A program made the position numbers and the translations under genes. A model generated the notes under the pieces. It made no database searches and was not told the DNA's origin. It was given only the letters and a program-made list of their open reading frames with translations. DNA of 40,530 nucleotides from an uncultured Planctomycetales bacterium (GTDB lineage Bacteria > Omnitrophota > Gorgyraeia > Zapsychrales > Zapsychraceae): positions 1 through 40,530 of the forward strand of contig CAZIRV010000002.1 in the NCBI GenBank assembly GCA_964541845.1, in the 5' to 3' direction. Positions 2,646 through 22,878 of this stretch are shown here, one piece after another; the stretch's first letter is position 1; the number at the start of each line of letters is the position of its first letter.

Positions 2646-3814
2646 TGAAGAAATATTTTAAAAAAGAGTTAGAGGTGTTAGAAAAAAAGGGGCTTAGACG
2701 GGCTTTGCGTCAGCAAGAAGGGACTCAAGGAAGAAAGATTACGGTTAATGGTAAGGAAGTATTGAATTTTTGTTCTAATAATTATTTGGGCCTAGCAGGA
2801 GATGAGCGTTTATGTGAGGCCGCGAAAAAGAGTTTGGAATTAGAAGGGTTTGGTTCCGGAGCGTCAAGACTTATTTGTGGGAATATGGAGTCCCATCAAA
2901 AATTGGAAAAGGCTATCGCGGAGTTTAAGGGAACGGAAAGTTGTTTATTGTTTAGTTCAGGATACATGGCGAATGGTGGAATTATTTCGAGTTTATTTGA
3001 TCGGGGAGATATTATTTTTTCAGATAAGCTCAATCATGCTTCAATTGTTGATGGTATATTGTTAAGTCGAGCCGATTTTAAGCGGTATCCGCATCGGGAT
3101 ATGAAAGTATTGGAAAAGATGTTGAAGGGTTCAGATAAGTGTAAGAAACGGATAATTATCACAGATAGTGTTTTTAGTATGGATGGAGATATAGCCCCTT
3201 TGGATAAAATTGTAGCGTTGGCACAGAAGTATTATTGTTTAGTCATGGTCGATGAGGCCCACGCTTTGGGCATCATGGGAAAGTCTGGAAAAGGATTGGT
3301 TGAGCATTTTGGTGTTGAGGATAAAATTGATATTCAAATGGGAACCTTATCTAAGGCGGCGGGTTCCTTTGGGGCGTATTGTTGTGGATCAAAGGAATTA
3401 GTTGAGCTTTTAAAAAATAAGGCGCGTAGTTTTATTTATACGACGGGCTTACCACCATCAGTGGCGGCAGCTTCACAAAAAGCAATTGGCATTATTAAAG
3501 AAGATGAAGGTTTAAGAAAGCAATTGTGGAAAAATACGGTTTATCTCCATGAAGCATTAAGAAATTCAGGTTTTGATACGATGAATTCAGAAACACCCAT
3601 TATTCCTATTTTAGTAAAGGATTCTAACGTAGCTGTCGAATTTTCTAAACGGTTGTTTGATGAAGGCATTTTTATCAGCGCGATTCGCCCACCGACGGTT
3701 CCACACAATATGGCACGGTTGCGTTTGACTGTAATGGCAACGCACAACCAAGATGATTTAGATTTTTTATTGAAAAAAATGCAGAAGATTGGAAAGGAAT
3801 TATGCCTTATCTAA
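2645..3814 (+). CDS. bioF: 8-amino-7-oxononanoate synthase
   Basis: This belongs to the alpha-oxoamine synthase family, with DEAHA and the PLP lysine in GTLSKAAG. The start is moved to ATG 2645 (MKKYFKKELEVLEKKGLRR), because the ORF-track N-terminus is translated repeat sequence. Confidence 0.9.
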   Translation: MKKYFKKELEVLEKKGLRRALRQQEGTQGRKITVNGKEVLNFCSNNYLGLAGDERLCEAAKKSLELEGFGSGASRLICGNMESHQKLEKAIAEFKGTESCLLFSSGYMANGGIISSLFDRGDIIFSDKLNHASIVDGILLSRADFKRYPHRDMKVLEKMLKGSDKCKKRIIITDSVFSMDGDIAPLDKIVALAQKYYCLVMVDEAHALGIMGKSGKGLVEHFGVEDKIDIQMGTLSKAAGSFGAYCCGSKELVELLKNKARSFIYTTGLPPSVAAASQKAIGIIKEDEGLRKQLWKNTVYLHEALRNSGFDTMNSETPIIPILVKDSNVAVEFSKRLFDEGIFISAIRPPTVPHNMARLRLTVMATHNQDDLDFLLKKMQKIGKELCLI

Positions 3815-12013: not shown

Positions 12014-12102
12014 TACTAATTCCATTAAATAAGTACTCATTTAAAAAGCTTACTTACTCGCAAAAACGTCGAGGTAAGTAAAATTAAATCAGGAATTAAT
12101 AC
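12013..12102 (+). repeat. Family-1 hairpin element, X subtype
   Basis: The arms are ATACTAATTCCATTAAATAAG and CAGGAATTAATAC. The inner stem is CTTACTTACTCG/CGAGGTAAGTAA and the loop is CAAAAACGT. It abuts the stop codon of the upstream gene. Confidence 0.85.
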
Positions 12103-12203
12103 CAAATTCATTAAATAATTGCTCTATTTTAAGGTTGCTGTGTCTCGTTGAATCGTCGAGACAAGCAAAATGAATTTTGGTCATTATTTAATGAAATTGG
12201 TAT
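12099..12203 (+). repeat. Family-1 hairpin element, Y subtype (copy Y1)
   Basis: The arms are ATACCAAATTCATTAAATAATT and CATTATTTAATGAAATTGGTAT. The inner stem is TTGCTGTGTCTCG/CGAGACAAGCAA and the loop is TTGAATCGT. It differs from 38781-38885 at 6 of 105 nt. Confidence 0.9.
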
Positions 12204-21507: not shown

Positions 21508-22173
21508 ATGGATAAAATTGATATGCAGTCAATGTGGCAGTCAATGTCACTTCTTTTACGATCACATCCCTGGCATGGGATTCCTATTGGAGAAGATGCT
21601 CCGAATATGGTTAATACCTATATTGAAACTGTCCCAACGGATACTGTGAAGTATGAAATTGATAAAAAAAGCGGGTTTTTAAAAGTAGATCGTCCTCAAA
21701 AGTATTCCAGCATATGCCCAACGCTTTATGGATTTATTCCACAGACTTATTGTGGAAAGCGAATTGGGGGCTATTGCGCGAAAGAAACAGGGCGCAGTGA
21801 GGTTGTGGGAGATGATGATCCATTGGATATTTGTGTTTTAACAGAAAAAACAATAAGTCATGGTGATATTATGGTACGGGCTATTCCTATTGGAGGATTT
21901 CGAATGATTGACCGGGGACAGGCCGATGATAAGATTATTGCTGTCATGCACGGAGATGGATTATACAGCTGTTGGAATAATATTGAAGACTGTCCAGAAG
22001 CCTTTATTGATCGTTTAAGGCATTATTTCCTTACATATAAAGATCTTCCTGATTCAATAGATCCGACTTGTGAAATTACGCATACTTTTGGTAAAGAAGA
22101 GGCTCTAAAAATTATTCAGTTCAGCAGGGAAGATTATAAGGATCATTTTGGGCAGTTATCCCAATTTTATTAA
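21508..22173 (+). CDS. ppa: Inorganic diphosphatase, family I
   Basis: It carries an acidic metal-binding signature DDDPLDICVL and has PPase-like length and composition. The stop codon lies inside an arm-like repeat fragment. Confidence 0.8.
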   Translation: MDKIDMQSMWQSMSLLLRSHPWHGIPIGEDAPNMVNTYIETVPTDTVKYEIDKKSGFLKVDRPQKYSSICPTLYGFIPQTYCGKRIGGYCAKETGRSEVVGDDDPLDICVLTEKTISHGDIMVRAIPIGGFRMIDRGQADDKIIAVMHGDGLYSCWNNIEDCPEAFIDRLRHYFLTYKDLPDSIDPTCEITHTFGKEEALKIIQFSREDYKDHFGQLSQFY

Positions 22174-22179: not shown

Positions 22180-22195
22180 TCTTAAAAATAAACTT

Positions 22196-22392
22196 ATAAC
22201 CAAATCTATTAAATAAGTACTCATTTAAAAGGCTTACTTACTCGTAAAATCGTCGAGATAAGGAATCGTTCAAAAATAACCTCGACAATCATAACATAAG
22301 TCTTGTCGGGTTGAGATATATAGTTGTCGAGGTTATTTTTGAGCCGATCCTAAGTAAAACTAATATCAGGAATTAATTAGTGGAATTGGTAT
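22196..22392 (+). repeat. Family-1 hairpin element (X subtype) interrupted by a nested element
   Basis: The left half matches 12013-12070 (ATTAAATAAGTACTCATTTAAAAGGCTTACTTACTCGTAAAATCGTCGAG). The right half is TAAGTAAAACTAATATCAGGAATTAATTAGTGGAATTGGTAT. Confidence 0.85.
22263..22350. mobile_element. 88-nt MITE-like hairpin inserted into the family-1 element, flanked by a TAAG duplication
   Basis: The 27-nt inverted arms are GGAATCGTTCAAAAATAACCTCGACAA and TTGTCGAGGTTATTTTTGAGCCGATCC. A direct TAAG lies at 22259-22262 and again at 22351-22354. The uninterrupted copy has a single TAAG at 12075-12078. Confidence 0.7.
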
Positions 22393-22436
22393 TATTAGAA
22401 GATTTATTAAAAAGGCACAATGCATGGGTTCTTCTC

Positions 22437-22503: not shown

Positions 22504-22878
22504 ATGTCTAAAAAAATTCTTGTTGTTGATGATGATCCCACAACGAATCAGCTGATATGTTCTCTTTTAAAAGCTAAGGGGTATGTTGTTGTTTCAGCTA
22601 TTGATGGACTGGATGCTTTAGCGAACATTCAAAGAGAGTCTCCTGATTTAGTAGTGTTGGATGTGATGATGCCGGAAGTTGATGGGTACGATGTGTGCTA
22701 TCAATTACGGTTTAATGATAATTTTGATAAGGTTCCGATTGTTCTTTTAACTGACCGATGTCAAGAACTTGATGAAAGTATTGGGAAACGTGTTAATATT
22801 GAATATGTTTCAAAACCAGTAGACAGTAAGAACCTTTTTGAAAAAATTGAGTTGTTTTTGGGTAAGGAAACATCCTGA
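22504..22878 (+). CDS. Single-domain response regulator (CheY-like receiver)
   Basis: The DDD, LDVMMPEVDG, LLTD and SKP motifs are present. There is no output domain. Confidence 0.9.
   Translation: MSKKILVVDDDPTTNQLICSLLKAKGYVVVSAIDGLDALANIQRESPDLVVLDVMMPEVDGYDVCYQLRFNDNFDKVPIVLLTDRCQELDESIGKRVNIEYVSKPVDSKNLFEKIELFLGKETS

Follow-up and report, generated by a model that had tools for sequence, protein, structure and literature searches.

The hairpin between the inorganic pyrophosphatase and response-regulator genes of this uncultured Omnitrophota is likely a non-coding IS1182-type MITE of 89 nt nested in a second MITE (family-1), the two having reached the locus together as one composite, and this is the best explanation of the evidence as a whole. 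The window, the complete stretch of 40,530 nt analyzed here, is contig C2 of the draft genome G000 (2.16 Mb in 184 contigs, 93.8% complete), and C-numbers refer to contigs of that genome throughout. The 89-mer represents an undescribed family of ordinary mobile DNA, a putative bacterial IS1182-type MITE, whose mechanism is not new. It provides a well-resolved case of bacterial MITE-in-MITE nesting, in which the nested element can be carried by its host element.

Structure of the Locus

The first-pass annotation of this DNA had described an inverted-repeat insert with TAAG on both sides in a family-1 copy and a single TAAG in an uninterrupted paralog, and the sequence is as described. The inner site (22259-22354) reads ...TCGTCGAGA-TAAG-[88 nt]-TAAG-TAAAACTAATATCAGG, with TAAG at 22259-22262 and 22351-22354, and the paralogous repeat at 12014-12099 has one TAAG only, at 12075-12078. 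The insert is a DNA hairpin with a 19-bp perfect stem (DNA MFE -19.4 kcal/mol, z = -6.5, equaled by 0 of 200 shuffles); the hairpin reported earlier is real, but its 27-nt arms are complementary at only 23 of 27 positions, with the mismatch in the outer 8 nt (GGAATCGT versus GGATCGGC). The insert is 100% identical to the copy at C119:4115-4203. The composite of insert and host (22197-22391) has a fold z of -5.7, carries one additional A (position 22199) compared with the family-1 consensus, and lies in a spacer of 330 nt between the two genes (Table 1).

The logic of comparing filled and empty sites is valid, as the empty paralogs carry a single target. The copy first used as the uninterrupted reference also has a single target; however, it is itself truncated, its right terminus being missing and a family-2 element starting at 12100. 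Copies of the same host haplotype at C107:2647, C10:23373, and C58:1216 are better examples of empty sites. The resulting 189-nt pair of a family-1 left part and a family-2 element (12014-12202) has TAA at both sides, as if it were a mobile dimer with one end contributed by each element.

Table 1. Features of the nested element, its host and the reference copy in the window.
Feature	Position	Strand	Details
89-nt MITE, subfamily A, "C34" nested lineage	22262..22350	.	GGAATCGTTCAAAAATAACCTCGACAA ... TTGTCGAGGTTATTTTTGAGCCGATCC; 49 genomic copies, 42 near full length
Left terminal inverted repeat	22262..22280	+	19-nt core GGAATCGTTCAAAAATAAC, common to subfamilies A and B
Right terminal inverted repeat	22332..22350	-	Minus strand reads GGATCGGCTCAAAAATAAC
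Inner target-site duplication, left copy TAA	22259..22261	.	3-bp direct match in 37/42 copies; covariation p = 1.7e-7
Inner target-site duplication, right copy TAA	22351..22353	.	G22354 is the host base of the C-TWA-G-type target
Composite: family-1 MITE with nested 89-mer	22197..22391	.	TA[A]CCAAATC...GGAATTGGTA; family-1 termini and haplotypes
Outer target-site duplication, left copy TTA (family-1 host or composite)	22194..22196	.	Outer TNA duplications at every composite locus
Outer target-site duplication, right copy TTA	22392..22394	.	
Inorganic pyrophosphatase gene (ppa), upstream	21508..22173	+	Pfam PF00719, E = 1.4e-42; stop 24 nt before composite start
Single-domain response regulator gene, downstream	22504..22878	+	Pfam PF00072, E = 8.3e-23; start 112 nt past composite end
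Family-1 copy first taken as empty	12014..12099	.	Single TAA at 12075-12077; right terminus missing
Family-2 MITE abutting the truncated family-1 copy	12100..12202	.	Unit 12014-12202 bounded by TAA (12011-13 and 12203-05)

Copy Number, Boundaries and Target Duplication

The suggestion that the insert is mobile, has inverted repeats and duplicates its target is borne out by about 66 elements and by the covariation of their flanks (p = 1.7e-7). A BLAST search found 49 copies of at least 60 nt in G000, 42 of them near full length, and the pattern GGAWYSGYTCAAAAATAAC marks 133 termini in the genome (~66 elements), compared with 0-2 per genome in 400 other genomes of the phylum, each with one mismatch and near the level of a reversed-pattern control. 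The 89-mer has no ORF and its interior measures 35-51 nt; the inverted repeats, with their conserved 19-nt core, extend to the very ends of the element (GGAATCG.../...CGATCC). Several contigs of G000 end within 89-mer copies.

The further copies looked for, with a TA-containing duplication, are thus present, and they revise the boundaries first given to the element. The left flank of the 42 copies is T-W-A-G, with the G constant in 41 of them, and the right flank is T-W-A followed by G in 32 of 42 only; the flanking direct repeat matches over 3 bp in 37 of 42 copies versus 28 of 42 for a 4-bp match. Because the G at 22262 is constant while the G after the right duplication is not, it is taken as the first base of the element, which then spans 89 nt (22262-22350, GGAATCG...CGATCC). 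The insert and its duplication are real, but the element has 89 nt rather than 88 and the duplication is the 3-bp TAA; TAAG seems duplicated in the window because the triplet of this particular target is, by chance, followed by a G.

The middle base of the left and right triplets covaries across 41 independent sites (13 AA, 23 TT and three mixed; Fisher p = 1.7e-7), and CAA/CAA and TTG/TTG flanking pairs are also present, which together indicate a true target duplication rather than a motif owned by the element. The target consensus, symmetrized over 31 independent sites, is C-TWA-G, with a flanking C/G frequency of 42% versus 19% in the background.

It had also been proposed that the insert targets other hairpin elements, and it is indeed found repeatedly inside hairpin repeats; structural targeting, however, is unsupported. 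In a test of this hypothesis, prompted by IS1272, the empty sites folded no better than random TWA sites: 42 reconstructed independent empty sites and 1500 random intergenic TWA sites had medians of -1.7 and -1.7 kcal/mol (Mann-Whitney p = 0.26). The insertion preference is the sequence C-TWA-G; that 89-mers so often lie within other repeats is more readily accounted for by the AT and TWA richness of these repeats and by the lack of harm from insertion there.

Two further residences were observed. A small number of 89-mers are located in hairpin loops; the one at C44:15291-15378 interrupts a perfect palindrome of 12 bp (GTTTATACCCTG-TTA-CAGGGTATAAAC) in its loop. Its left flank is TTA and its right flank TAA, and it is among the few copies with non-matching duplications. 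Six 89-mers (C160:2990, C123:1373, C42:4693, C56:7980, C24:1406, and C20:2583) share one insertion point, a TTA within another dispersed repeat, ...CCTCGTTTGTAAATGC-TTA-GGTCAATACCTCGTGGG..., which has small CGAGG/CCTCG hairpins at its flanks and may be a third host repeat family or a second composite.

Subfamilies Sharing the Termini

Besides subfamily A, to which the insert belongs, about 17 copies form a subfamily B that matches it in the 19-nt termini and in the length of 89 nt but has an unrelated interior (...CTTTCAGGTTAATTTAAACTCCATTGAGGAGGGTTCAATCATAAGCCTTCAAG...). These include C5:7263-7351, C19:20947-21035, C48:5151-5239, C55:4968 and 7237, and C98:7424, among others. Mini-variants of 45 and 68 nt share the termini as well, and the 19-nt termini are all that subfamilies A and B and the mini-variants have in common, as predicted if a transposase recognizes the ends. 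The CTCGAC/GTCGAG motif, to which attention had been drawn as a feature shared with family-1 and family-2, is present in the insert but missing from subfamily B; as subfamily B retains the same termini, the motif is dispensable for mobility.

Transposase and Relation to IS1182

A transposase with matching terminal repeats, which the first-pass annotation had suggested searching for, was not found in G000. No match was obtained to DDE_Tnp_1, DDE_Tnp_4, DDE_Tnp_1_2, DUF4096, DDE_Tnp_1_6, DUF772, or the NCBIfam IS1182 model, which in a fragmented MAG of 93.8% completeness is weak evidence of absence, and no transposase of IS1182, IS5 or Harbinger type was detected in this genome. Likewise, no full-length element with exactly the termini of the 89-mer occurred in 400 genomes of the phylum or in scans of a wider collection, so the parent is unobserved.

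The 19-mer terminus does occur after TTA or TAA in many phyla, including Saprospiraceae, Planctomycetota, Clostridia, Desulfobacterota, Anammoxibacter, and another Omnitrophota MAG, mostly in short elements, and at loci L043 and L267 it adjoins DDE_Tnp_1_6-type ORFs. In the Saprospiraceae MAGs SRP065251_co1_7 and co1_20 (L049-L140), dozens of copies start with TWA|GGAACGGTTCAAAAATAACTTTACATTTTAAAATTGCAACTTATTGATTGTCAGTAG... beside unrelated genes, and they probably constitute another MITE family of the same terminus type.

The link to a transposase family comes from a Planctomycetota MAG (MFD09964.bin.2.7, G422), in which L263:196-2007 is a complete IS of 1812 bp. This IS has inverted repeats of 22 nt (GGAACCGGGGAAAAATAACTTC / GGATCGGGGGAAAAATAACTTC) and lies between duplicated triplets (TAA/TAA) in a C-TAA-G context. 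Its transposase is split into two ORFs matching the IS1182-family model NF033551 (E = 1.6e-64 and 1.5e-14, together covering model positions 56-485 of 488) and PF13751 (E = 3.5e-26). The right inverted repeat of this IS (IRR, GGATCGGGGGAAAAATAACTTC) is identical at 19 of 22 positions to the right end of subfamily B (GGATCGGCTCAAAAATAACTTG), and at 18 of 22 to the right end of the subfamily A copy in the window (...AACCTC), the IS being from another phylum and not an exact partner. Alongside a single copy of the IS, the same genome, G422, contains 39 or more MITEs of 99 nt (L263, L324-L334). These reproduce the left end of the IS with 100% identity over their first 59 nt and match its right end over their last ~40 nt; they are flanked by 3-bp duplications (TTA, TAA, TAG, TTG, and CAA) in C-TWA-G. 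The IS and its 99-nt MITEs form a textbook case of an autonomous element with non-autonomous derivatives; they resemble the 89-mer in end type and agree with it in duplication length, target and size class.

Full-length IS1182 transposases are also present in four relatives of G000 (G394, G019, G026, and G017), none of them bounded by the 89-mer terminus. Judged from its end similarity (19/22) and from the duplication and target shared with an IS of another phylum, and not from a matching parent, the 89-mer is a candidate IS1182-type MITE. Its IS1182-type partner may be unassembled, lost, or elsewhere in the community.

Several parent candidates were rejected. The pair of termini 1354 bp apart in L171 turned out to be two separate 89-mers around an ordinary lipoprotein-like gene, and the 396-aa ORF of L240, located beyond the end of a G000 contig and with an HTH-like N-terminus, was single-copy and had no transposase signal. 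L048 belongs to a related Omnitrophota MAG; its terminus, located 654 nt from the end of the contig, is a relic beside rplS and not an IS. The Clostridia loci L043, L098, and L121 have only ~85 nt in common, and the transposase ORF of L043 is truncated. In L295, an IS1182 gene stands between perfect family-1-type repeats, which proved to be two complete MITEs with their own duplications and not the ends of an IS. At this last locus (G394, of the same family as G000), the family-1/2-type MITEs at 965-1067 and 3246-3325 have TAA or TTA duplications and surround a full-length IS1182 transposase gene (401 bits), and the ends of the IS itself look like CTCC(T)AGGAGGCTGTCCGAGAA in a palindromic context.

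The Family-1 Host and Spread of the Nested Lineage

Family-1 is an element of ~101 nt with terminal inverted repeats (TACCAATTCCATTAAATAAG...GGATTTGGTA) and outer TNA duplications, represented by 48 uninterrupted (empty) and 12 interrupted (filled) paralogs. Thirteen 89-mers lie at the same TAA of family-1, and 12 of these 13 carry an A-to-C change at alignment column 34 (C34) that is found in none of the 29 other copies (Fisher p = 1.2e-9). Each composite occupies a distinct locus and has family-1 termini and an outer duplication of its own (TTA/TTA, TAA/TAA or TCA/TCA). As the ends are the same in all lineages, no private target would be expected for any of them, and the occurrence of C34 only in nested copies thus indicates that this lineage propagates with its host. 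The 89-mer of the window probably did not insert at this locus, the ~195-nt composite most likely having arrived as a unit.

The course of events proposed here begins with an IS1182-family DDE transposase, presumably supplied in trans, that would bind the 19-nt termini (GGAWYSGYTCAAAAATAAC) and join the element to a C-TWA-G target, cutting with a stagger of 3 nt whose repair would leave the TWA duplication. One such insertion would have landed at the right-arm TAA of a family-1 MITE, an unrelated-looking terminal-inverted-repeat element that also makes 3-bp TNA duplications, after which the nested C34 lineage, with its private A-to-C change, would have spread only with family-1 hosts. The simplest route for this spread would be mobilization of the whole ~195-nt composite via the family-1 termini, and the copy at 22197-22391 between ppa and the response-regulator gene would represent one such arrival.

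It is unlikely that the 89-mer instead inserted alone into a family-1 copy already at the locus, the ~13 nested copies being independent hits on a hot spot. The GAGA-TAA-G site has been struck more than once, as a different A haplotype (C20:1484) and subfamily B (C22:2005 and C80:8512) each reached it independently, and three or more host haplotypes include both filled and empty family-1 copies; nevertheless, C34 is confined to nested copies (12/13 versus 0/29, p = 1.2e-9) although the termini, and hence the transposase, are common to all lineages, and the copies without C34 mostly land elsewhere. The shared haplotypes, together with the composite in C119, which is chimeric in having a family-2-like left arm, imply that clonal amplification of a composite is insufficient by itself. 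The best fit is composite mobilization accompanied by some recombination, precise excision or hot-spot re-insertion.

A broader version of the composite reading, which we put forward tentatively and consider doubtful, is that two sequence-distinct MITE families are served by one IS1182-type transposase, or by two close ones, and may exchange ends; a nested insert would then pass through its host family by hitch-hiking together with recombination or precise excision. The examples cited for an exchange of ends are the hybrid unit at C80:8512, formed by an 89-mer and a family-1 right arm between TTA and TTA, and the dimer at 12014-12202 between TAA and TAA. The termini of family-1 and of the 89-mer differ (TACCAATTCCATTAAATAAG versus GGAATCGTTCAAAAATAAC, ~7/20 identical). 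If true, such sharing of a transposase and of ends would amount to a small self-organizing ecosystem of non-autonomous elements that has no resident autonomous copy.

Nesting is also reciprocal, with family-1 located inside subfamily B copies at C119:515-706, C18:21113, C84:6185-6379, and C113:7186-7295. Additionally, three 89-mers adjoin only half of a family-1 element (C80:8512-8600 with ~40 nt rightward, C22:2005, and C4:6474). The TTA on both outer sides of the C80 unit hints at hybrid units, a match that would arise by chance about half the time.

Spread of the insert between family-1 paralogs by homologous recombination or gene conversion, in a homing-like manner and in place of composite transposition, is quite improbable. 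The ~60 and 40 nt of flanking homology it would use are present, at least three of the host haplotypes that carry C34 inserts have identical empty counterparts, and the chimeric host in C119 is of the kind that it would produce; however, frequent co-transfer of nearby host SNPs would be expected and none was seen in F1a-type hosts, and the outer duplications of the composites show that the hosts transpose anyway. The composite reading is preferred also over that of a REP/REPIN- or IS200/IS605-type (PATE) hairpin moved as ssDNA by a Y1/HUH transposase, with TWA as a one-sided fixed target, which is extremely improbable despite the strong hairpin and the 3-4 Y1_Tnp genes encoded in G000, given the true duplication (covariation p = 1.7e-7; CAA/CAA and TTG/TTG pairs), inverted repeats that are terminal and not subterminal, termini matching those of a DDE-type IS1182 IS, and the absence of all four repeat families from the vicinity of the Y1 genes. 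These Y1/HUH transposase-like genes (PF01797) are located at C29:1370-1678 and 2015-2317 (in tandem, ~90% identical over 603 nt), C28:12566-12802, and C22:120-245, and they are not multi-copy IS200.

Comparison with Known Elements

Plants offer the classical examples of nested Tourist-like MITEs with TWA duplications; Tourist-type MITEs belong with the elements of the PIF/Harbinger-IS5 superfamily (e.g., mPing). The 89-mer resembles them in its 3-bp TWA (TAA/TTA) duplication, in inverted repeats starting with GG, in a length of ~100 nt and in nesting within MITEs, and differs in its bacterial host, in ends that are like those of IS1182 and not of Harbinger, and in the lack of a DDE_Tnp_4 gene in G000. 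Precise excision via the duplicated triplet, described for mPing (PMC4561436), is a further possible likeness.

The closest counterparts are the IS1182 IS and MITE derivatives of L263/G422, which have a similar terminus (GGAnnnGnnnAAAAATAAC, 19/22 to the L263 IRR), the 3-bp duplication and the C-TWA-G target. The MITEs of G422 are also of similar length (99 versus 89 nt), high in copy number and without coding capacity; unlike them, the 89-mer has no matching autonomous partner in its own genome or in relatives, and its interior is unrelated. MITEs derived from an IS of this family, ISMac2, have been reported in Methanosarcina acetivorans (PMC3852290). The terminus type GGAnnnGnTCAAAAATAAC, with its TWA duplication and C-TWA-G target, recurs across many phyla and is tentatively linked to the poorly characterized IS1182 family.

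Insertion of IS into REP elements is known (PMC1525189), and IS1272, a member of the IS1182 family, inserts in stem-loops without a duplication, some IS1182 members being said to target palindromes (PMC5678879). The 89-mer is like these in being a mobile element found repeatedly inside hairpin repeats, and IS1272 is of the same IS family; however, IS1272 replaces the hairpin and makes no duplication, whereas the 89-mer makes a clean 3-bp duplication and the host hairpin is kept. Within G000, the family-1 and family-2 MITEs are likewise abundant hairpins of ~100 nt with terminal inverted repeats, 3-bp TNA duplications and reciprocal nesting. A literature search retrieved no paper combining Omnitrophota and MITE terms.

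Distribution and Effect on Genome Assembly

Among ~400 genomes of the phylum, a single Omnitrophota lineage has the 89-mer family. The family was present in 0 of 40 relatives of G000, all of other genera, in which the locus is not syntenic, and the proteins flanking the composite had no record elsewhere. Family-1/2-type elements are present in a related genus (L295), and the 89-mer in no relative searched. The Candidatus Omnitrophota MAG of L048 shares proteins with G000 at 61-79% identity, far above the loci of other phyla, in support of the placement of G000 in Omnitrophota.

Metagenome contigs of VAPK01 derive from the same population as G000 (99.9-100% identical), and no insertion polymorphism was seen between them at the 17 loci sampled. 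The MAG assembly is broken up by the ~66 copies of the 89-mer and by the family-1/2 elements, which are more abundant, and masking is needed before intergenic "hairpins" of Omnitrophota are read as regulatory RNAs or terminators. The VAPK01 contigs L171, L174, and L248, which come from an independent assembly, bridge the G000 breaks C102/C28, C54/C36, and C145/C84, all at MITE copies, which indicates that these repeats are a main cause of the fragmentation.
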